Below are positions 335 through 44,083 of a DNA stretch of 45,635 nucleotides, in pieces (the stretch's first letter is position 1; every line of letters starts with the position of its first letter). Below the pieces are notes generated by a model, which made no database searches, was not told the origin of the DNA, and worked only from the letters and a program-made list of their open reading frames with translations. The stretch is from a virus (lineage: Duplodnaviria > Heunggongvirae > Uroviricota > Caudoviricetes). The stretch lies in IMG/VR virus record IMGVR_UViG_2671180631_000012; one strand, written 5' to 3'. Made by a program: the position numbers and the translations under genes.

Positions 335-4994
<4,660 letters not shown>

Positions 4995-5702: not shown

Positions 5703-6472
5703 TTGTCGGTATACCTCTCTCGTTTGCTCAGTTGTTCAGGAATATGGTGCAGCAGCTCGCCGTCACCACAGTAAATGGCGGCATGATTCGGCACCGATGA
5801 ACCAAAACAGCACAGCAGCACATCGCCCGGCTGCGCCGTTGACAACGGCACCTGATACAGCCCTGTAGCCTCCAGATTATCCAGATAGAGATTCTGACCA
5901 TTACGCCACCAGTCGTCCTCACGATGAAAATCTGGCATCTCAATTCCCGCCAGATGGTAAGCGTCCCGGAACAGCGTGTAACAGTCCGTCACCCCGTGCT
6001 CAAAGCGCCGCCCGGTGAGATGCGGCACACAGCGGAACTTGTGAATCGCCCCGCGGCAGACCAGCCACCACGACAAATCACTCTGCACCTGCAGCCGCCG
6101 GTCGGCCTCACTCAGCCAGGGCAGACCACCGGGGTGGCTGTGGACCAGCGCCACAATCTCACCCTGCATCTCTGCCTGCAGCCAGTCNNNNNNNNNNNNN
6201 NNNNNNNNNNNNNNNNNNNNNNNNNNNNNNNNNNNNNNNNNNNNNNNNNNNNNNNNNNNNNNNNNNNNNNNNNNNNNNNNNNNNNNNNNNNNNNNNNNNN
6301 NNNNNNNNNNNNNNNNNNNNNNNNNNNNNNNNNNNNNNNNNNNCGGCTCACCGGAAATATTCACGCAGGGAAAATATCTTTCCCCCTCCGGTGTTCTCAC
6401 CACGAAGCCGCACGACTCCGCTGGCGCACATCGCCGGGCGTGCGCCAGAATCGCTGATTCTGTCTGTGTCAT
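5600..6472 (-). CDS. K: Tail assembly protein K (JAB/MPN-like HSHP...SEAD motif plus NlpC/P60-like C-terminus); contains a scaffold gap
   Basis: ORF starts MTQTESAILAHARRCAPAESCGFVV as recalled for lambda K; HSHPGGLPWLSEAD motif present; 3' end overlaps the start of I. Confidence 0.8.
   Translation of the reverse strand: MTQTESAILAHARRCAPAESCGFVVRTPEGERYFPCVNISGEPXXXXXXXXXXXXXXXXXXXXXXXXXXXXXXXXXXXXXXXXXXXXXXXXXXXXDWLQAEMQGEIVALVHSHPGGLPWLSEADRRLQVQSDLSWWLVCRGAIHKFRCVPHLTGRRFEHGVTDCYTLFRDAYHLAGIEMPDFHREDDWWRNGQNLYLDNLEATGLYQVPLSTAQPGDVLLCCFGSSVPNHAAIYCGDGELLHHIPEQLSKRERYTDKWQRRTHSLWRHRAWHASAFTGICSDLAAASTFV
6188..6343. other. Assembly gap (156 N) inside K
   Basis: N run; translated as X residues in the K ORF. 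Confidence 0.9.
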
Positions 6473-6477
6473 GGGAT

Positions 6478-7176
6478 TTACTGCGAAAGTTTGTTAATGG
6501 AAAGGAAGCCGCCAAAGTTGCCGACGTTATTGCGAAACTTACAGCCGCTCAGGCATTTGCTGCATTTATCCTTCGTGATATCGGACGTTGGCTGGTCATA
6601 TTCATCCGCGACAGCCGGACCGTGATAACCGCACTCATCACCGCGATAGGTCCAGGTGCAGGTATTAGCAAGCATGATGCGCCCCGGAAAAACAGCGCCG
6701 TCCGTTTCCGTCGGCGTGGACAGTACAAAGGAGGCACTGACCGCGCTCAGTTCGCTGCACTGCTCAATACGCCAGCGGCTGATCACCTCCTGCTCCGGAT
6801 CGGCGTCACTGTTTCCGTTGACGAAGTTCACCGCATCCAGAAAACGGGCGTAAACCTTACGCCTGACCACCGTTCCGCCGACCAGACTCTGCAGGTCTTC
6901 CGCCATCCCGGTGACCATGCCGTGCAGATTAGAGACTTTCAGCGTTGGCCTTGCACTGGCACCTTTGCCGTTCATCTCAAATCCACTCCCCTGAATGGGA
7001 TAGGCCTGATACTGCCGACTCTGCCAGGTGACAGACTCTCCTTTCTCGTTCTGCTCATTGCAGAAAAAGTAGCGATCCCCGCCTACCTCGGTCAGGTCGA
7101 TTTCCCAGAGCACCACGCTGGCCGACTGCTCCGCACGAATGCATTCATTCAGCGTTTCCTGTTGTATGTCCTGCAT
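6478..7176 (-). CDS. L: Minor tail protein L
   Basis: 232-aa ORF with lambda-L-like length and sequence ([33 protein letters not shown]...); order H-M-L-K-I-J conserved. Confidence 0.85.
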   Translation of the reverse strand: MQDIQQETLNECIRAEQSASVVLWEIDLTEVGGDRYFFCNEQNEKGESVTWQSRQYQAYPIQGSGFEMNGKGASARPTLKVSNLHGMVTGMAEDLQSLVGGTVVRRKVYARFLDAVNFVNGNSDADPEQEVISRWRIEQCSELSAVSASFVLSTPTETDGAVFPGRIMLANTCTWTYRGDECGYHGPAVADEYDQPTSDITKDKCSKCLSGCKFRNNVGNFGGFLSINKLSQ

Positions 7177-7514
7177 CAGATCACCACTTCGTCAAACTGA
7201 CACGAAAAATCGGTATAGGTGATATGTTCTGTCGCTGACCACGTTCGACACACCACTCTGATTTTTCTGTTAATACCCGGCGGGCGCCAAAAAAAAGATT
7301 TATAGCCTTCATGCCGGGCTAAAAATTTTTCAAATGAATCACGTTCATTCGCCTCAACTTTGAAATCACAGGTGAAAACGCGCAGAGAATGATTAAGTCC
7401 ATTTGGACTTCGTTGCTCATAACCATCACCAAATCTTACAGTTTTTATCGATGGTTTATTTTCTGTTTTCATTCCATCCTCTGGTAACCAGTGAAATTCT
7501 TCCGTATTAGCCAC
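7176..7514 (-). CDS. Minor tail protein M-like (diverged)
   Basis: 112-aa ORF between tape measure and L; weak similarity to lambda M (VRFGDGY...SF.W.PP motifs); assigned mainly by position. Confidence 0.6.
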
Positions 7515-10500
7515 TTAACATTCCCCCATCACGTCGCATATTTAACAGATTGCCCTGCACCCGCTGATCAACCATCCCCATAAGTGCTTTTATTGCCTGA
7601 GGGCCAATCTCTCCATTCTGGCCGTCATTTTGAATAGTGATTTGGTATACAGGGGCATAGGTAATATCTCCGCCTCCATTACCACTTTTACTATTAATAG
7701 CTCTGACACCAAGAGAACCATCGGAAGTTCGTGTTAATGGCATAATGGCTTCCGGTCCAGCCTCACCAAAAACACCAGCCCCTTTTGCAAAAGCAAAAAA
7801 TTGCGGGGAATCATAAATACCGTTCGAATACGTGCTCAATGACGGAGACTCATAAACACCGCCCTTTGCATTCGGAATAAATTTACTAATAGCACTCCCG
7901 ATAGTTCCTAAAATCCCCCCAGAAGAACTGTTACTAATGCTGTCGAAAATCCCAGTAATTGAAGCCTTTAATGCTATTCGACTAAGATCCGAAATCACGG
8001 AAGTAGCGAAAGAACGAAAATTTGCCTTGCCTGTCGTGACAAAATCACCCAGCGCATCGGTCATCCCATCAAACATCTGAGTCGTGGTTGATTTTATCTG
8101 CTCACTGATATCCTTAGTGTCATCCAGCCAGTTATTGAATCCCTGGGAGGCACCACTAACCCAGTCTCCTGCCTGAATATCGAGCTGCTCGTTTTTCTGT
8201 CTGACAATTTCTTTTTCCCGTTCCAGAGCATCATTCAGAGCCTGCATTTTCTCTTGAAAAACATGATCTGACATTCCACGGGATTTATCTGCATAGTCAC
8301 GTTCAAGTTGCAGACGCTGATTGTTATATCCATGTTCAATCCGCAGTAATTCCTGCTGGCGTTGCTGATTTTTATCGCCAACCCCATAACCAGCAATCTG
8401 AATATCATACCCCTGCTGACGATTATCAATCGAAGCCTGCAATGAATCACGCCATGCTGTTATTTCGGCGGATTCCTTGATTAGCCTGTTATTTTTTTCA
8501 ATCGCAACATTTTTCTCCATCAACGTGGTTATTTCTTCCCGGTGTAAGAGAAGCGATTTCTGATCCTGGGTTAATTTCGATGATGGTCGTGACTCTAGGT
8601 CGGCAATCCGCTGACGCCACTTAACCAGTTCCTGTTCAGAGGAACTTAATTTAACGGTCAACTCAGCTTGTGAACTTAGTAACGCATTCTGTTGATTCAG
8701 ATGATCAATCATTCGTTGGGCTGCATCATCAGAATAACCTTTCGCCTTTGGTTGCTTTGGATCTTTATAACGCTCATTTATTTGAGCGATAAGATTATTA
8801 TATTCTTCCTTTGAATACTGATTCTTTAGCTTTTCCAGTTTTGCAAGTTCACTAGCTCTCTGCTGCTCCCGGGTCTGATATTGTTTTGAAAAGGCATCTG
8901 CTCTCTGTCTGAGTTCAATTCCTTCCTGTTGTCGCTTGTTGTAATCGTTTATTGATGAATTTAGTACGTCCTGAGCAATTTTTTCTGCTTGAAGTACGCC
9001 CAATTGCTGCTTTAATCGTGCCAGCCTTTTATTTTGAGCTCCGCCATCTCCAATGCCACCTAACCCGAAAACTCCGGGTCGGGTATTTTTTTCTATTTCA
9101 TCAATTTGACGGAGAACATCTGAGATTTTTTGATCAAGGGAGGCCTCACGGCCAATATCCAGCATGGAATCCCATGCCCATTTTGCGGAGTCTGCGACAG
9201 CTTTCCATGCAGTCTCAAGATAACCAAGATTTTCTTTAATCTGGTTGGTGCGCTGGATCATTGAGGATGAGTATTCTTCTGTCGCAATGCGGGCGGCCTC
9301 CTGCTGGTTCCCTTCATCCTGTAGCGCCTTAATCTGGTTATAAGTCGCAAGTGTCAGAAAATGGTACTGATCATTAAGTTTTGATATGGCACTGACAGGA
9401 TCCTTTGCAATTTCATTGAAGTCATTAACCAGTTGTTCGGTTGATATTCCTGTTACTTCGCTCGTTTTTACTATCGCTGTCGTCACTTGCTCCAGCGAAC
9501 TGCTCGCTACCTTTCCCGAACGCACAAGCTGATTTAATACTGCCGCCGCAGCACCAGTTGTCGAATCAGCCGCATTCCCGGCACGTTGAGCTATATCGCC
9601 CAATTGCCCGCTGGTTGTCCCCAACTGATTTCCGGTAAGAATAAGAGATTTATTAAATTCGTCCTGCTCCTGAGAGCCTTTATAGTAAGCCAGTCCTAAG
9701 ACCCCAACGGCTGCTGCGGCCAGGGTAAAAGGATTAATTAATCCCAGCACATAAGAACCTACACCTTTGATCGCCGGGCCAATCCCACCGAACATATCTT
9801 TTAGCTGGCCGCCCTGCTGCATTAACACCATAAATGGCGACTGACCAGTGGACAACCCAACAACAATATCCGTCATTTGTACAGGCAACATGCGCATAGC
9901 AAAAGCCGTTTGTTTTGCCGACATTCCGGTTTTGCTTAATTGTGATTGAGTAACCTCAAGCTCACTCCGCATAGCACGAAGTTTTCCAGAAAGCTCCTCA
10001 TACATTTCAGGAGAAAGCATCCCCTTAGCTTTTGCTTCATTGAGCTGTTTCTGTTGTTCTACCAGACGATTAAAAGCAGTTCCGACAGGATCAAGTTGAG
10101 CAATCAGACGTTGCAAAGCAACAACCTGTTCATCATGCGCTTTTGCTGCTTCTCGCTCTGCCTGAGCCTCTCCGGTAAGCTCTCGCCGTGTTTCCTGTAT
10201 TTTTCGGCTATAATTCTCAAACTGAGAACCATTTATTTTCCCGGATGCAAACGCAGCATTAAGTTCATCATGCTGTTGTTCAAGATTTCTTAGCGCCGCA
10301 GCCAGAGGGTCGATCTTGTCCAGCATTCTTTGAAAGGCCTGAGCCTGCGCTTCCTGCTGGGCGGCAGCAAGTTTTCCGGCCTTCTCGGCTTCTCTCTGCG
10401 CTTGCGCAACCCCGCTCAATTCCTCTGTGGTTTCATTAAGTTTACGGACAAGAAATTCATATTCTTCTTTATCAATAAGCCCTTTATCGAAAAATTTCTT

Positions 10501-23513: not shown

Positions 23514-24971
23514 TTAGGAGCGCCAAAAAAAACCTGAAAACAATATAATAACAGGATAAATTTCAAGGCGACCAAGAATCATAGCTATGCACATTAAATA
23601 TTTTGCAATGTCATTAAGCACTCCGAATGACGATGCAGTAGCCCCAAAACCTAATCCCATATTATTAATACATGCAGCCACTGTTGCAAATGATGTAAGA
23701 AAATCATATCCCATACCATTTAACACCAGTATAAAAAACACCGTGAAGAGAGTATAAAGAAAAAAGAAACTCCATACAGACCTCATTACACGATCTGTAA
23801 CTATCTTCCCTCCTACATTTACACTCAACAACGCTCTGGGATGAGAAAGCTGATTTATCTCGTGTTTGCTTTGTTTGAAAAGTATAAGAAATCGAAGTGA
23901 CTTAATTCCACCACAGGTTGAACCTATACATCCCCCAAAGAAACTTGACAACAGCAAAAACACTATCGTGTGCGTGGGCCAGTTTGCATAATCCTGCGTA
24001 GCTAAACCATTATCAGTGAGCATGGAGCTGGCAAGAAAAAACGAATGAATAAAACTTCCATGCAAGTCATACATACCTATATGCCAGACCTGGAAAGAGG
24101 TAACAATGATCACCCCTAAGGCTATTAACAGAAAGAAACGAAGTTCAATATCTCTGATTAAAGGTTTTATCGTTTTTCTGCTAATAACAATATACCAAAG
24201 AGTGAAGTTGAAAGCCGATAGCAGGGAAAAAGAACCAGCCACCAGCTCAACCAAATAGTTATTAAAATATCCGATACTCTCGCTATGAGTTGAGAAACCA
24301 CCAAGCGAAACTGTGGAAATCCCGTGACAAATAGCATCAAACAAAGGCATTCCTGCAAGTCTATAACAGACAATACAAGCAATACCTAATAAAGAATAAG
24401 TTATCCACAGTGTCCGTGACGTATCGGCCAGGCGGGGAGTGAGTTTGTCATCCTTAAATGGCCCCGGCATTTCTGACTGATAAAGCTTTGCACCACCAAT
24501 ACCCAATAATGGCAATACTGCAACCGCCAGAACAATAACTCCTAAACCACCTATAAAATTTAACTGTGACCGATAGTACAAATATGCCCGAGGTAATGAA
24601 CTAACATCATCAATTACAGTTGCTCCTGTTGTTGTTATTCCAGAAACCCCTTCAAACAGAGCATCAATGAACGTTAAATTAAGTTCTGAGTCAATCCATA
24701 AAGGGAATGCACTAATAACAGAAAACAAAATCCAAAACATTACAATTATAATAAACCCATCACGGGTACGTAATTGAATGCCAGATTTCTTAGTTGTATA
24801 CCACGCTCCGCCACCAATGCAAAAAAATATAACGAAAGTTATAAAGAAAACGAACAGGCTTTTTTCTTTATAAAACAATGCTACAACCATTGGTGGCAAC
24901 ATTGAAAGACTATAGAGCCAAACCAGGAACCCACACATATGAGTAACAACTCTTACATGAGATGTATTCAT
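23514..24971 (-). CDS. trkG: Trk-system potassium uptake protein TrkG (TrkH family)
   Basis: Polytopic membrane ORF; from the internal start MNTSHVRVVTHMCGFLVWLYS it is 485 aa, matching the recalled Rac-prophage trkG; AT-rich codon usage. Confidence 0.85.
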   Translation of the reverse strand: MNTSHVRVVTHMCGFLVWLYSLSMLPPMVVALFYKEKSLFVFFITFVIFFCIGGGAWYTTKKSGIQLRTRDGFIIIVMFWILFSVISAFPLWIDSELNLTFIDALFEGVSGITTTGATVIDDVSSLPRAYLYYRSQLNFIGGLGVIVLAVAVLPLLGIGGAKLYQSEMPGPFKDDKLTPRLADTSRTLWITYSLLGIACIVCYRLAGMPLFDAICHGISTVSLGGFSTHSESIGYFNNYLVELVAGSFSLLSAFNFTLWYIVISRKTIKPLIRDIELRFFLLIALGVIIVTSFQVWHIGMYDLHGSFIHSFFLASSMLTDNGLATQDYANWPTHTIVFLLLSSFFGGCIGSTCGGIKSLRFLILFKQSKHEINQLSHPRALLSVNVGGKIVTDRVMRSVWSFFFLYTLFTVFFILVLNGMGYDFLTSFATVAACINNMGLGFGATASSFGVLNDIAKYLMCIAMILGRLEIYPVIILFSGFFWRS

Positions 24972-27567: not shown

Positions 27568-28097
27568 ACAGCGAATCAGATCAAATAAAACGCACATTTG
27601 TTAACATTTACACAAAGTCTGCGTGGGATATTCTGAAAGAATATCCATAATGTGGAGAGAATCTATTGAAGTGCATGGTGCCGGGTGCCTCCCGGTGAAC
27701 AAAATGTTCGTGATACCTGTCGGCGACAGAAAAGGTTAATGGTATCACCCCACCGCACAGGGGGATTCACCATGCAGGAGTTTTCTTAGCAAACTCACTG
27801 CGCGCCCGGCAACTCCCAACCACATAAAATGCGGAGTTTGTGGCATTTATGCATATAACTCGCAGGAATTATCTTAAAAAACTGATGTCGATCCGGATTA
27901 AAAAGAAGCAGGTCATCATCAGATGACTGGAAAAAAGGAAAACAAAAAATACTCATCATACAGTTTTGATTGCAGGGATGAGCCTGCTATGCACAATATG
28001 CAGAATATAAGCAAGATAAAAATATGCAGGCATATTATTTCGGATCTTGTTATTAACACAACCTTTTTAATAATCATTTGGCATACAATAAACCAGC

Positions 28098-29981: not shown

Positions 29982-30261
29982 TTCTCAATCTCTCGATGGC
30001 GCAGCGCAGCAGATGCCAGTTGTTCAGGCTGACGAATAAAGTATAAATAAACTGGCTATGGTGTAAAGCCCCACATAGCATGAACAAACACTACATATCA
30101 AATAGCTGGTACAAGGATAGAAATACGACACTTATTATTAAAAACGATTAGATAAATTACATTTTAATGTTATGCAAAAGTTCTTTTTTATCATAACATT
30201 TCAATAAAAGCATTACAGATGCAATCATCCCGTCATCATCAATTATTTAAGGTGGTTAAAC

Positions 30262-30348
30262 ATGGAAAATAACAAGTTCGCACATCTCGCTCCTTTTTTA
30301 TCCGTAATCCTTTTCGCTTGTTGTTTTATATGGGCATTATTTTTATAA
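30262..30348 (+). CDS. Candidate small hydrophobic protein (28 aa)
   Basis: Own translation MENNKFAHLAPFLSVILFACCFIWALFL; strong SD AAGGTGG 6 nt upstream of the ATG; in the AT-rich intergenic region; below the ORF-track size cutoff. Confidence 0.35.
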   Translation: MENNKFAHLAPFLSVILFACCFIWALFL

Positions 30349-30756
30349 AGTAGCCACATGATAAGTTGCTGGAATCATATTTCCCACTCAAGTCATTAAC
30401 ATTTGATAAGATATATCTAAAAGGACGCCTTTACATTATTTATGCGTATATAATTTATTTATATACACAGTAAAGGTATCCTGGGAAAATATTTATCGTT
30501 AAAAAATACATCATAAATAATTAAGCTGAAATTTCAGAACACAACTAATACACACAATAAGGTTCAGTAACAGTAATCTATGTGGACTACATCGAGATTT
30601 TTTGATTAAACTTTAATAACTTATTCCTAACACACAGAATGCATAAACTAAAAGTAAAACAAATAGTTATACGAAAAACAACCATATTTATTCTATCTTC
30701 TCCTCTAATCAACATATCAATTATGTGTTTCATAACAGCTTGACATAACCCTCCAA

Positions 30757-30779
30757 AAGATGCATTTTTAATGCATGTT
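30757..30779 (+). promoter_or_regulatory. NsrR-box-like inverted repeat overlapping the promoter of the YeaR-like gene
   Basis: AAGATGCATTT-T-TAATGCATGTT, an 11-1-11 inverted repeat close to the recalled NsrR consensus; TTGACA -35-like hexamer at 30740-30745. Confidence 0.45.
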
Positions 30780-30794
30780 TTGGAGGAGGTGGTT

Positions 30795-31133
30795 ATGACA
30801 CACAAGAGAATTCCTAAAGATTGGGTAATCAAACGCTCAACTCCGTTCTTCACAAAAGAGAACGTACCTTCAGCGTTATTAACACATCATAATACAGCAG
30901 CAGGTGTTTTTGGGCAGTTGTGCGTAATGGAAGGCACTGTAACATATTATGGTTTTACTGATGAGAATGCTACTGAACCGGAGATAAAAGTAGTCATTAA
31001 TGCTGGCGCTTTTGCAACAAGCCCACCACAATACTGGCACCGTGTTGAACTAAGCGATGATGCTCAGTTTAATATTAACTTTTGGGTCGCTCCAGACTTT
31101 TCGGGCGAAAAAGTCTATAGCACCAAAAAATAG
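30795..31133 (+). CDS. YeaR-like DUF1971 (cupin-like) protein
   Basis: ORF 30771-31133; preferred start ATG at 30795 preceded by GGAGGAGG; about 112 aa with RSTPFF...FNINFWVAP pattern recalled for the YeaR/TehB-N family; opposite strand to neighbours. Confidence 0.5.
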   Translation: MTHKRIPKDWVIKRSTPFFTKENVPSALLTHHNTAAGVFGQLCVMEGTVTYYGFTDENATEPEIKVVINAGAFATSPPQYWHRVELSDDAQFNINFWVAPDFSGEKVYSTKK

Positions 31134-31163
31134 ATGATCATATTAAAAATGCTTTAACAGTCA

Positions 31164-31199
31164 GACCCGGCAGGGCTATCCCCGACGGGTCTCATTTTT
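31164..31199 (+). terminator. Terminator-like hairpin after the YeaR-like gene
   Basis: Imperfect stem AGACCCG...CGGGTCT followed by CATTTTT, 30 nt after the stop. Confidence 0.45.
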
Positions 31200-31753
31200 G
31201 TAAATATATTGGTTCTACATTGACAGGAGACTTCAACCATAAGAAGTAATCTGAATACTTGAGCAATAAATTTACTTAAGATTAATGAGCGCACCTTGCC
31301 GGACAAAGATAAACCAAGGTAACACCTTTTTTCTAGCCAGTATGTAATCAATCAGAAAGCCGCTCCATAAGAACAACAGCAAGACAATAAATTGCCATTA
31401 CAGCCGCAATAGCCAGCGCACATTTGAGAACCAGCACGACAACCCCCTGTATTAGACGCACACCAGTCCTGATAAATATGAGGCTGTCTCGTCAGTGATT
31501 CAATACAACTATTGGGTATAGTTTCTGTGATTTTATTCTGTAGAAATGGAACACAACAACCAGTCACCACCAGCACTTCCTTAAATGCTCTAAGTCAGAA
31601 ACAAGCCAACATTTTAGTCCGCTTTGAGCGATCTGCAGACATTGCTAGCAGCCTTCTGTGTGAATTCTCAGGGAGCAGGTCGGCATAGCATCACGTTGAG
31701 GCTCTTACCCTACTTGTTCACACCAACCCTAACTCCACAGACTGATTCATAAA

Positions 31754-32755
31754 TTAGTAATCTGCGTGTTTCGCACTTTTCAGAAATGCTTTCATATTTT
31801 CATTAGGTCGCTCAATTTCGAAGTTACTTCCATATAACTCTTGTAATTTTGGCCATAACTTACTTAATAACCCTCTCCTGCGATAAAATGGATGTATCCA
31901 AACGGTAGATAGGTACGGAGAATTTGCATTTGAATTGTTTATTGTGACCAGCCCAACTAAACATTGTCGATAACCACTATTATCCATTGATTGTATTTCT
32001 TCGACGAATGGATACGCGATTACATCAGTCCAACCATGATCGGTTGTATCCCATTGCATTCCGTCATGACATTCCTTCGACTGATAGCGGCGTAAAGCTA
32101 CACACGCGAGCTTTTGCCAATCTGGAGAATTAATTGTGATCTCTTCATCGTATGACGCGCCTATTGGAGCGGGTATTGGTCTGATTAATCCAGCATGGCA
32201 TTCATCATAGAACTTCATGTTTCCCTCAGAAACGTTGTGTACGTTGGGTTGCTCCATGTGTGCGCCATTCAAAAATAGCTCTGATAGTAGTGTATCTACA
32301 CTGTAATCTTTATTGATTATTGTCGGCTTAGAGTTTTTCTTATTAAGGCCGCGAGTAACGATTTTTTGATCAATGTTAACAACATGGAATAATCCGTCGG
32401 GGAGGCTAGCGAACCACGATGGGGCATCGGACCAGAATAGCATGCCTTTTGTACTTCTTAAGAGTTTAATTAAGTTAATACAAGCTTCTTCACTAGTCTT
32501 GCCGTTGATGCGAAGTATGTTAGGACTAAAGTAATATTCATCCATATCAGGGAATGCAGCTTCGCAAAACTCCTGTACATAATTTAGCACCTGGATTCTA
32601 CAGAGATCATCATAGCTGGTAATAACTAAGGGGGTATCTTCATTACTATTATGATTATCAATAATGCAATCTATAGCGAGACTTACTGCTTTGCGTATCA
32701 CTTCAGTTGAATCTAACGACTCTAAAAATTTTGTCTTTCGTGTGCGAATATCCAT
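31754..32755 (-). CDS. Hypothetical protein with GNAT-like C-terminal motif (cargo gene B)
   Basis: 333 aa; AT-rich; C-terminal VWIHPFYRRRGLLSKLW resembles the GNAT acetyl-CoA-binding motif; start 15 nt after the gene A stop. Confidence 0.5.
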   Translation of the reverse strand: MDIRTRKTKFLESLDSTEVIRKAVSLAIDCIIDNHNSNEDTPLVITSYDDLCRIQVLNYVQEFCEAAFPDMDEYYFSPNILRINGKTSEEACINLIKLLRSTKGMLFWSDAPSWFASLPDGLFHVVNIDQKIVTRGLNKKNSKPTIINKDYSVDTLLSELFLNGAHMEQPNVHNVSEGNMKFYDECHAGLIRPIPAPIGASYDEEITINSPDWQKLACVALRRYQSKECHDGMQWDTTDHGWTDVIAYPFVEEIQSMDNSGYRQCLVGLVTINNSNANSPYLSTVWIHPFYRRRGLLSKLWPKLQELYGSNFEIERPNENMKAFLKSAKHADY

Positions 32756-32770
32756 GTATGACCTGCGCTA

Positions 32771-33793
32771 TTAAAATTCATGAATGAACGGTTTGTCATC
32801 TGGTTGCAAAATGGTGGTTTTATTCGTTGCTACATTTAAACTGTTGTAGAGCATAATTGCCAGGTTCGATGCATTTTCAATCAGCGTTTCAAGATCCTGG
32901 TCTGTAATCACTACGAGGTTCCCTTCTTTATCCTTTCCACCACGATGCACTAAGTGATTTCGATTGAGGGTTGCCAATTCAATAGCTTCTATCGGACAGT
33001 CTTTTTGTACTTTTATATCGAATGTAGCTTCATAGCGGTCGATTACCTTTTTAGTGCTATGCCAGCTTGCACTGATCAAGTGTTCCTTGATTGACCTGAT
33101 TAGCTCTCCCCTAATTTTCTCGATGGGTTCACCCTTGAAAGGCAACGCAGCAATATCTTTGCTTACTTTAAATTCAGTCTTACCTTTTTCTATACAATTG
33201 GCTATGTAGACATCATCTTTCTCTATAGAATTAATGAATAGCTCAACATAAAGCGTTTCCAAAGCTGTAATAACATTCGTGTAGAGCAAACTAAGCAAGT
33301 GGTTTTTTTGCTGTTGTTCAGTTTTATCTTTTGCAAGTTTTTTTATTTTATCGATATTATCAATGAATTTTAAATACGGATTACCGGAAGACGTTACAGC
33401 GTCGTAGATATCATCATCGTACCAATCATCTATATTATTTGAGTTTCCAGACCAGTCAAAACATTGTGTTTGTAATTCATCTACTAATTCCTCAATATAC
33501 TCAGATTTAACATATTGACCGAAGATGGATTGTAGTTCTTCGCTCGCATCATACGGCCCGCCATATATGTAAGCATAGCCACCTTCTCTACTTTCATACG
33601 GACAAGCATTTGCCGGATCTTCAAAGTTTTCAAAGAACCAGTTTTTCATTACTTCGAGTTGATCTTTTTTGCTTATGTATTTTAAAGATTTTAGTGGAAC
33701 TTTCTTTCCATTAACCTCGAAAACAATTTTCACGATGTAACGCTCCCTTGTATCAATTGCGCAACTATTATACCACAGCGAAATACAGGGCAT
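32771..33793 (-). CDS. Hypothetical protein with C-terminal HEPN-like Rx4H motif (cargo gene A)
   Basis: ORF 32771-33862; preferred start MPCISLWYN at 33793 with perfect SD GGAGG 7 nt upstream; AT-rich; motif LNRNHLVHRGG encoded at 32945-32962. Confidence 0.5.
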   Translation of the reverse strand: MPCISLWYNSCAIDTRERYIVKIVFEVNGKKVPLKSLKYISKKDQLEVMKNWFFENFEDPANACPYESREGGYAYIYGGPYDASEELQSIFGQYVKSEYIEELVDELQTQCFDWSGNSNNIDDWYDDDIYDAVTSSGNPYLKFIDNIDKIKKLAKDKTEQQQKNHLLSLLYTNVITALETLYVELFINSIEKDDVYIANCIEKGKTEFKVSKDIAALPFKGEPIEKIRGELIRSIKEHLISASWHSTKKVIDRYEATFDIKVQKDCPIEAIELATLNRNHLVHRGGKDKEGNLVVITDQDLETLIENASNLAIMLYNSLNVATNKTTILQPDDKPFIHEF

Positions 33794-33931
33794 AACCTGC
33801 CTCCTTAAACTAACATACCATGAGCCAGCAATGTCCGCTATTGGCACAAAGCGGACAACCACGCTAGCTCTCCCCTGTGCCAGAAAAATGTCAATTTACA
33901 TATGAACTAATGCTCTTTGATCTAGTAACGT

Positions 33932-35147: not shown

Positions 35148-35840
35148 TTACTTCTCAATTCCTGGCTGGACGACATTCGGACGCCAGCTCTCCCAGTTAA
35201 AATTCACCCATCGCCCGCCGTTCATGGNNNNNNNNNNNNNNNNNNNNNNNNNNNNNNNNNNNNNNNNNNNNNNNNNNNNNNNNNNNNNNNNNNNNNNNNN
35301 NNNNNNNNNNNNNNNNNNNNNNNNNNNNNNNNNNNNNNNNNNNNNNNNNNNNNNNNNNNNNNNNNNNNNNNNNNNNNNNNNNNNNNNNNNNNNNNNNNNN
35401 NNNNNNNNNNNNNNNNNNNNNNNNNNNNNNNNNNNNNNNNNNNNNNNNNNNNNNNNNNNNNNNNNNNNNNNNNNNNNGATAGCTGCCGCTAAGTGGTTCT
35501 TCCCGGTACCAGGTTTTCCGCTGAACGCAAAATTTGTACACCCGGTCATCAGTTCATCAGCGATGGATTTCGCCTGACTCAACGCGTATCGCTGCGCTTC
35601 GTTCTGCACCTGGTAATTCGAAAACGAGCATTTGCGGTGCAATGGCTGGATGCCAGAGCGATTCAGAATTTTTTCCACCCGCAACTGACGATTCTGACGG
35701 TTGATCTCCTCACAACGTTTCTGGCCTTCGGAAAGTTGCCACTCGCGCCACTCCGCTACCGTCTTGAATGGCGCGGTTACATGTGACGGGGCCAGTCTGC
35801 GGATACGTTCAAGAACGTCGCCTGTCGCAATATTTTTCAT
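35148..35840 (-). CDS. ydaV: DnaC/IstB-like replication ATPase (helicase loader); contains a scaffold gap
   Basis: Walker [15 protein letters not shown]; follows the YdaU-like gene; N run at 35228-35477 translated as X. Confidence 0.7.
35228..35477. other. Assembly gap (250 N) inside the DnaC-like gene
   Basis: N run. Confidence 0.9.
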
Positions 35841-43707: not shown

Positions 43708-43902
43708 ATGAGATATGACAATGTTAAACCATGTCCATTTTGTGGTTGTCCATCAGTAACGGTGAAAGCCATTTCAGGATATTACCGAGCGAAGTGTAAC
43801 GGATGCGAATCCCGAACCGGTTATGGTGGAAGTGAAAAAGAAGCACTCGAACGATGAAATAAACGAACCACTGGAAATAATAATGGAGGTGTTCATGTAT
43901 AA
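43708..43902 (+). CDS. ralR: Restriction alleviation protein RalR (Lar)
   Basis: Own translation MRYDNVKPCPFCGCPSVTVKAISGYYRAKCNGCESRTGYGGSEKEALERWNKRTTGNNNGGVHV (64 aa); position after recT. Confidence 0.75.
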
Positions 43903-44083
43903 AATTACCGCCACTATTGAAAAGGAAGGTGGCACTCCTACTAACTGGACAAGATATTCAAAATCTAAACTAACGAAATCAGAATGCGAAAAAATGCTCT
44001 CAGGTAAAAAAGAAGCAGGCGTTTCCAGAGAGCAGAAAGTAAAACTGATAAATTTTAATTGCGAGAAACTTCAGTCCTCGTGA
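43883..44083 (+). CDS. ydaC: YdaC-like small protein
   Basis: ORF 43823-44083; start chosen at MEVFMYKITATIEKEGG; overlaps the ralR 3' end. Confidence 0.5.
   Translation: MEVFMYKITATIEKEGGTPTNWTRYSKSKLTKSECEKMLSGKKEAGVSREQKVKLINFNCEKLQSS

Follow-up and report, generated by a model that had tools for sequence, protein, structure and literature searches.

The described system closest to the gene pair considered here is DS-33, composed of WP_014639476.1 and WP_000354965.1 and recorded under the working name 'GNAT' with the entry 'defensive TRUE' (DeWeirdt, Mahoney and Laub, Science 2026, 'DefensePredictor', PMC13092281). The main text of that paper only counts DS-33 among four HEPN-containing systems, the data being given in supplementary tables with no mechanism proposed; neither the accession numbers nor the name 'DS-33' turn up in full-text searches, and the match is found in the supplementary tables only. 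We have examined a 45,635-nt stretch of DNA (IMG/VR record IMGVR_UViG_2671180631_000012, referred to in its entirety as the window), which comparison with annotated genomes identifies as most of a Rac-type prophage of Escherichia coli. Two of its minus-strand genes, gene A (32771–33733; GTG start, 320 amino acids, RefSeq WP_014639476.1) and gene B (31754–32755; ATG start, 333 amino acids, RefSeq WP_000354966.1), are separated by a 15-nt spacer (32756–32770). The gene A product is identical to DS-33A at 320 of 320 residues and the gene B product to DS-33B at 332 of 333, and the gene order, the 15-nt gap and the origin in E. coli are those of the published system (coordinates 6922–7884 and 7900–8901). 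The pair is already known, therefore, having been published in 2026 as an anti-phage system; the sole difference is at residue 289 of gene B, which is proline in the window (P289, WP_000354966.1) and leucine in the published clone (L289, WP_000354965.1).

Other described systems resemble gene A in part. The MAE_18760 family, with a RiboL-PSP-type HEPN domain and a HEPN/RES-NTD1 domain, has the same two-domain architecture and Rx4H motif as gene A; its description is bioinformatic and its operons include ParA/Soj, whereas the window pair includes a GNAT gene (Anantharaman et al. 2013, PMC3710099). PD-T4-2 (DUF262/GmrSD_N plus RiboL-PSP-HEPN; Vassallo et al. 2022, cited in the tables of PMC13092281) contains a HEPN domain of gene A's Pfam family, and by the HHblits search of that paper's authors PD-T4-2B is the closest known relative, with a probability of 96.1% over 55% of gene A (PMC13092281). 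However, the DUF262/GmrSD_N partner is absent beside the window pair, PD-T4-2B is not reported with an NTD1 domain, and the PADLOC PD-T4-2 models give no match to gene A at E values up to 1, such that we do not assign the pair to PD-T4-2. The Gifsy-1 protein HepS and its S. aureus prophage counterpart Tha are stand-alone prophage HEPN defences (PDB 9oik; PMC11087260), but their HEPN families and sensor parts differ from those of DS-33A; both are triggered by phage tail proteins, and the best targets of DS-33 include T7 and T3. In the type VII toxin–antitoxin system HepT/MntA the partner is a nucleotidyltransferase, as opposed to the GNAT protein here, which is non-essential and is not conserved across the family.

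In the published clone, built in a promoterless low-copy pSC101 vector and placed in MG1655, the genes were preceded by no more than 200 bp of their native DNA, and Table S7 reports log10 protection with two replicates per phage (PMC13092281). The wild-type system protected against T7 (3.8/2.6), T3 (3.3/2.4), Bas67 (4.0/2.0) and Bas26 (5.0/5.9), reductions in plaquing of about 2 to 6 logs, with values of 0.8/0.1 for T5. Deletion of the HEPN gene brought protection to about 0 for T7, T3 and Bas67, and to 0.5/0.3 for Bas26 and 0.5/0.1 for T5; the R258A substitution left 0.8/0.5 for T7, no more than 0.3 for T3, 0.5/0 for Bas67, 0.7/0.4 for Bas26 and 0.4/0.3 for T5. With the GNAT gene deleted the corresponding values were 4.8/4.3 (T7), 3.3/3.3 (T3), 4.0/3.3 (Bas67), 5.0/4.9 (Bas26) and 1.7/0.5 (T5). 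Because defence is abolished by HEPN deletion and by R258A but kept upon GNAT deletion, gene A and its residue R258 are needed and gene B is not, at least in the L289 clone from which all of the protection data derive and which is near-identical to the P289 pair of the window. Gene A (DS-33A) is thereby shown to be the defence effector, sufficient without gene B, and the native 198-nt upstream region to drive expression of the system in the promoterless vector. The DefensePredictor log-odds are 9.45 for gene A and 1.08 for gene B (PMC13092281).

The original prediction, made from the sequence alone, had proposed that the pair is defence cargo and had suggested cloning it behind its native upstream region, challenging it with a phage panel and mutating the HEPN arginine; the proposal is borne out by the experimental validation of DS-33, and that experiment is in effect the published one. 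Our preferred reading, to which we assign a probability of roughly 0.8, is that DS-33 is an anti-phage cassette of two genes which Rac-type prophages carry as exchangeable cargo, with gene A as its effector and gene B outside the measured killing path.

The gene A product appears to consist of two domains. Its first ∼100 residues (33434–33733, minus strand) correspond to a HEPN/RES-NTD1 domain with the motif MRxWFxxNFEDPAxxCPYESREGGYxYIYGGPYDA, presumed by analogy to be a sensor or regulatory module, and residues ∼120–308 (32810–33376, minus strand) to a HEPN helical-bundle domain, for which the predicted structure has the four-helix up-down fold; structural neighbours include HepS, AbiV, LsoA and Csm6. 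The segment LNRNHLVHRGG, on which gene A had been called HEPN-like, is present and contains the Rx4H catalytic motif R258-N-H-L-V-H263-R264 (32942–32962, minus strand; cga aat cac tta gtg cat cgt). Across 107 aligned gene A homologs R258, H263 and R264 (R-x4-H-R) never vary, nor do several residues of the NTD1 motif, and K267, four residues past H263, is conserved in at least 90% of the homologs. The fold together with the invariant motif confirms the HEPN call, and by analogy with characterized HEPN proteins we infer that DS-33A has endoribonuclease activity.

Profile scores for the gene A product itself are low. It matches Pfam PF18870 (HEPN_RES_NTD1) at 21.8–22.2 bits (E ∼2e-4; gathering threshold 27.4) and gives no match to PF18735 (HEPN_RiboL-PSP; gathering threshold 28.4) at E values up to 1. 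Its homologs at 32–59% identity exceed the HEPN_RiboL-PSP threshold (P0099, 35.1; P0103, 39.1; P0060, 28.5) and nearly reach that for NTD1. When the N-terminal 100 residues were used as a query they recovered 1406 cluster representatives, and in a sample of 108 of these PF18870 is matched by 83 (best E 8e-13) and the RiboL-PSP HEPN family PF18735 by 47, with single cases each of fusion to PIN_8, GmrSD_N or a KAP NTPase; fusions of NTD1 to RES have also been described (Anantharaman et al. 2013, PMC3710099). PADLOC v2 and NCBIfam offer no meaningful match for either gene product, PDB-sequence profile searches found nothing, and PHROGs yields only two families, both of unknown function, with the gene A and gene B proteins themselves among their members.

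Gene B is predicted to encode a GNAT (acyl-CoA N-acyltransferase) protein. Its AlphaFold2 model (pLDDT, the predicted local distance difference test score, 90.2) has the GNAT alpha/beta fold in residues ∼205–333 (31757–32143, minus strand), in agreement with the original call, and it is by this modelled fold that we classify gene B as a GNAT acyltransferase. The segment VWIHPFYRRRGLLSKLW, from which that call was made, is present as described, although it occupies residues 285–301 of 333 and so lies near the C-terminus, not at the end of the protein. The score against Pfam Acetyltransf_1 falls just short of the threshold (19.9 versus 20.7 bits), but this family is matched by 47 of 59 gene B family members, two of which (P0164, 27.0; P0166, 26.2) pass the threshold. 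For the pyrophosphate loop of motif A, Q/R-x-x-G-x-G/A, the picture is mixed: H288, P289 and R292 show little or no variation, the glycine that follows is variable, and L, M or K stands at the last G/A position. An N-terminal alpha/beta domain (residues ∼1–150; 32306–32755, minus strand) is confidently modelled; it is covered by no Pfam, NCBIfam or PADLOC family, and has no clear PDB fold match separable from the GNAT matches.

The position of the single allelic difference within this protein warrants closer examination. The P289 codon (cca, 31889–31891, minus strand) falls within motif A (..VWIH-P-FYRRRG..), and it is this residue that is leucine in the allele used for the published measurements. 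Residue 289 is proline in 58 of 58 aligned gene B homologs, and the proline allele is present in at least 1000 contigs compared with 31 for the leucine allele. Motif A of GNAT proteins follows the pattern V-x-P-x-x-R-G-x-G-I-G, and P289, mapped by inspection, is presumably the conserved proline of this motif, at the junction of the acetyl-CoA-binding strand and helix. Because the tested clone carries L289, the dispensability of the GNAT gene has been demonstrated solely with an allele that is rare and may be weakened.

The two genes are seldom found together outside of close relatives. The pair is present in 205 of 5426 complete E. coli genomes, and no copy was found in the phage collection. 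Among 80 genomic loci of gene A relatives from many phyla, gene B lies downstream in only two, the closest ones, these being in Serratia grimesii and on a contig labelled Collinsella; clustering of the immediate neighbours at the 80 loci gave no recurrent neighbour family other than gene B. The latter contig (JAIHTM010000277.1, 3.3 kb, labelled as a Collinsella sp. metagenome-assembled genome) matches the E. coli pair at 100% identity and is probably a binning contaminant in an actinobacterial metagenome bin. Relatives of gene B at 75% identity or below likewise stand alone, in a Serratia integrative and conjugative element, in a Mu-like prophage of Motilimonas, on a plasmid-like contig that carries ddrB-ParB, and in chromosomal islands, the hosts also including Marinomonas, Shewanella and Aeromonas salmonicida. 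Aeromonas caviae (L084–L087) has the intact pair, with its 15-nt gap, on a relaxase-bearing mobilisable element beside SIR2 and cREC_REC genes, with proteins 86% (gene A) and 79% (gene B) identical to those of E. coli. Because most relatives of both genes are solitary, and because the intact pair is found on different mobile elements, these sequence comparisons indicate that the pairing is a single, fairly recent joining of two independent cargo genes which later moved between mobile elements. An obligate two-component system is rejected, with only two of the 80 loci paired and with defence kept after GNAT deletion.

Three further observations concern individual copies of the pair. The Aeromonas caviae mobilisable element constitutes a second, non-prophage vehicle with defence-island-like company. 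In strain EC2 gene B is frameshifted and gene A is intact. E. coli O78 strain 3 and MB56 carry insertion sequences at the locus, with IS2 between the DUF977 gene and gene A, and two copies of ISSen4, 5′ of gene A and in the A/B gap; these insertions may be a sign that the cassette has been silenced or uncoupled.

Comparison of Rac variants supports the suggestion that the pair occupies an accessory slot, since in Rac variants with the same flanking genes the interval from DUF977 to DUF1971 holds different cassettes, and judged from these alignments the DS-33 pair is exchangeable cargo of that slot. In MS15047 the DS-33 position (L100, 6915–9988) holds genes for a SIR2-family deacylase, a non-canonical purine NTP pyrophosphatase, an adenosine deaminase and a divergent TetR regulator, which looks like another defence-type cassette; GIMC1405 and TUM14697 have QueH in the same slot, and KBN10P04869 has hypothetical genes. 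In 0H26 (L089, 1228–4924) BCCT transporter and DUF2254 genes adjoin the DUF977 gene, bracketed by two copies of the palindrome described below, and these genes possibly represent cargo of the slot, as opposed to the end of a truncated prophage.

A 24-bp palindrome is found at each junction of the slot. The first, GTCCGC-N12-GCGGAC (33833–33856, unstranded), is at the DUF977-side junction and belongs to the backbone side, and it is here that homology with Rac variants bearing other cassettes begins; its RNA fold has a free energy of -26.8 kcal/mol (z -4.0). The second, GTCCGC-N12-GCAGAC (31617–31640, unstranded), lies at the other junction, 114 nt past the gene B stop codon, where homology with MS15047 and GIMC1405 ends; its fold alone is unexceptional (z -1.0). 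In GIMC1405 the palindrome stem is kept through changes on both arms. The pattern GTCYGC-N12-GCRGAC occurs exactly twice in the window, a count that is not independent as the pattern was derived from the same window, and it is also present at the junctions of other Rac variants (L100, 6636–6659; L101, 6616–6639; L092, 3685, 3727 and 4901; L089, 1228 and 4901; L003, 5878 and 8141). The palindromes may be terminators or recombination boundary sequences.

Under the preferred reading, in which gene A is the effector of an exchangeable cassette, DS-33 would be transcribed from its own promoter just upstream of gene A. Two HEPN domains would probably pair to form a composite metal-independent ribonuclease (RNase) site, as in other HEPN defence proteins, and the ∼100-residue HEPN/RES-NTD1 domain would likely hold this site off until a product of infection by T7-like and some other phages is sensed. 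The active site would then cut RNA (tRNA, rRNA or mRNA), translation would stop, and phage multiplication would fail, the infected cell probably being sacrificed. We favour the view that gene B is a semi-autonomous mobile-element enzyme with its own substrate, which would have joined the gene A operon in a single young lineage.

Several points weigh against this reading or temper it. RNA cleavage, dimerisation, abortive infection and sensing by NTD1 are ascribed to DS-33A by analogy, and since the gene A product scores below the cutoffs for both PF18870 and PF18735 its assignment to these families relies on homologs and a predicted structure. Across ∼14–21% protein divergence between E. coli and Aeromonas the two genes have remained together, spacer and promoter included, and this retained linkage argues for some functional tie between genes A and B. 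Deletion of the GNAT gene tended to raise protection (PMC13092281), and the apparent dispensability of gene B may reflect a weakened L289 allele.

The alternative that survives best, though we think it unlikely, is that gene B acts as a brake, with the GNAT protein lowering HEPN activity by acetylating either DS-33A or the RNA or protein that DS-33A targets. There is a parallel in the MNT antitoxins, which AMPylate HepT HEPN toxins beside the Rx4-6H motif, and here the conserved K267 would be a candidate, if speculative, acetylation site. GNAT deletion shifts log protection by +1.0/+1.7 for T7, 0/+0.9 for T3, 0/+1.3 for Bas67 and +1.0/+0.5 for T5, and a stronger effect is possibly hidden by weakening of the tested allele by P289L; however, there are only two replicates, Bas26 moves in the opposite direction (0, -1.0), and removing one gene can change how the gene upstream of it is expressed. 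The slight gain in protection without gene B leaves room for a damping role. The single operon, with the 15-nt gap and promoter conserved in E. coli, Serratia and Aeromonas, is consistent with a brake, but a GNAT partner is missing beside most gene A relatives, gene B relatives are found with no HEPN gene next to them, and gene A alone is tolerated, both in the viable GNAT-deletion strain and in the natural EC2 frameshift. Somewhat more doubtful still is the specific version in which the common P289 GNAT protein is catalytically active as an acetyltransferase and exerts gating or tuning control over the HEPN RNase, an acetylation counterpart of HepT/MntA AMPylation whose importance was missed through use of the L289 clone.

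We regard as similarly improbable the proposal that gene B defends in its own right, or that gene A needs it, for phages or conditions outside the published panel or only when P289 is present. In its favour are the substitution in the tested allele of a residue that is proline throughout the aligned homologs, in the acetyl-CoA-binding motif A, with the proline allele being far commoner, as well as the location of gene B relatives in defence-island-like or mobile cargo beside Abi_2, ParE/PaaA2 and ddrB-ParB. Yet gene B alone, with the HEPN gene deleted, gave no protection against any of five phages (PMC13092281), its log-odds are just 1.08 compared with 9.45 for gene A, and it matches no PADLOC family. 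As for a classical toxin–antitoxin or addiction module, in which one protein, be it the gene A or the gene B product, would be toxic and its partner an indispensable antidote, HEPN and GNAT toxins do exist in known systems (HepT/MntA; TacT/AtaT) and the cassette is on mobile elements, but this toxin-module alternative from the original prediction is contradicted by strains with either gene alone growing as lawns (PMC13092281), by the EC2 frameshift with gene A intact, by the restriction of the pairing to close relatives within both families, and by the lack of a small DNA-binding antitoxin gene and the 333-residue two-domain form of gene B as against ∼170-residue GNAT toxins, so that we consider it very improbable.

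As a discovery this analysis adds little, as DS-33 was predicted, cloned and shown to defend in the 2026 paper; what is added here is the solitary occurrence of most HEPN relatives and of several GNAT relatives on other mobile elements, the P289L change in the tested allele, and the exchangeable slot with its two junction palindromes. The sole functional test of the GNAT gene was made with a rare allele in which an otherwise invariant residue is altered, and the P289 allele of the window makes for a cheap retest. DS-33A is also a convenient E. coli model for a widespread, mostly solitary HEPN family (more than 1400 cluster representatives with the N-terminal domain), and further cargo, including defence-like cassettes, could be sought in the palindrome-bounded DUF977–DUF1971 slot of Rac-type prophages.

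Gene A most likely begins at GTG 33733, yielding the 320-residue protein. The open reading frame ending at 32771 has three possible starts (GTG 33862, ATG 33793 and GTG 33733), and the original prediction had placed gene A at 32771–33793; a 340-residue open reading frame from ATG 33793 does exist, as does the TAAGGAGG sequence at 33800–33807, but the GTG 33733 start is favoured because it is the one used in RefSeq WP_014639476.1, because close homologs are 310–320 residues long with an N-terminus of MK(I/V)VF, and because the 60 nt between ATG 33793 and GTG 33733 are kept as DNA in E. coli, Serratia grimesii and Aeromonas caviae, with a 1-nt indel in Serratia grimesii that would break the ATG 33793 frame and no ATG at that position in Aeromonas caviae. 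For these reasons, and given the promoter-like DNA there, we reject ATG 33793. The catalytic pair predicted as R301/H306 is likewise real, with numbering that fits the 363-residue frame from GTG 33862; in the 320-residue protein the residues are R258 and H263.

Within the 20 extra codons lies a candidate extended -10 element, TGGTATAAT (33767–33775, minus strand), which is conserved in the three species and reads TACAAT in Serratia grimesii and Aeromonas caviae; we infer that it is a promoter element for the gene pair. A Shine-Dalgarno sequence, AAGGGAG (33743–33749, minus strand), is situated 9 nt 5′ of GTG 33733 and is largely conserved in the same species. With the start at GTG 33733 and the extended -10 at 33767–33775, the GGAGG noted earlier lies upstream of the likely promoter. 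A scan for two-hexamer consensus promoters and terminators found no excess over shuffled sequences, and did not report the extended -10.

The description of the locus as an AT-rich pair of minus-strand genes with a 15-nt gap agrees with both the coordinates and the windowed guanine-plus-cytosine (GC) content, which is 37.9% for the gene pair compared with 46.9% for the window (N runs removed) and ∼50% for the flanks. The pair lies in the lowest-GC part of the window, with equally low values in only 1.7% of 2178-nt windows, although the low-GC island extends past it (∼30001–33931, 37.6% GC). Beyond gene B, two AT-rich stretches (∼32–40% GC) at 29982–30794 and 31134–31616, with no annotated gene in matching RefSeq genomes, flank the plus-strand DUF1971 gene (annotated 30795–31133); this segment, the DUF1971 gene with its AT-rich sides, is present in 354 genomes, compared with 205 that have DS-33. 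The known Rac cargo gene trkG forms another low-GC stretch with strong AT-skew (23514–24971). Other apparent GC dips in the composition profile arise because of four masked N runs (1761–1918, 3644–3950, 6188–6343 and 35228–35477), the last of which breaks the ydaV/DnaC-like gene.

Elsewhere in the window, comparison places tail and head genes, trkG, lysis genes, a nin/Q-like block, ydaS-V, sieB, kilR, recET, ralR and intR. Rfam finds no RNA family inside the pair region, and above threshold it identifies RalA, the antitoxin small RNA of the RalR toxin (225 bits, 43901–44079, minus strand), and the small RNA STnc100 (86.6 bits, 27619–27805, minus strand), located between the tolA-like genes and the Q-like block.

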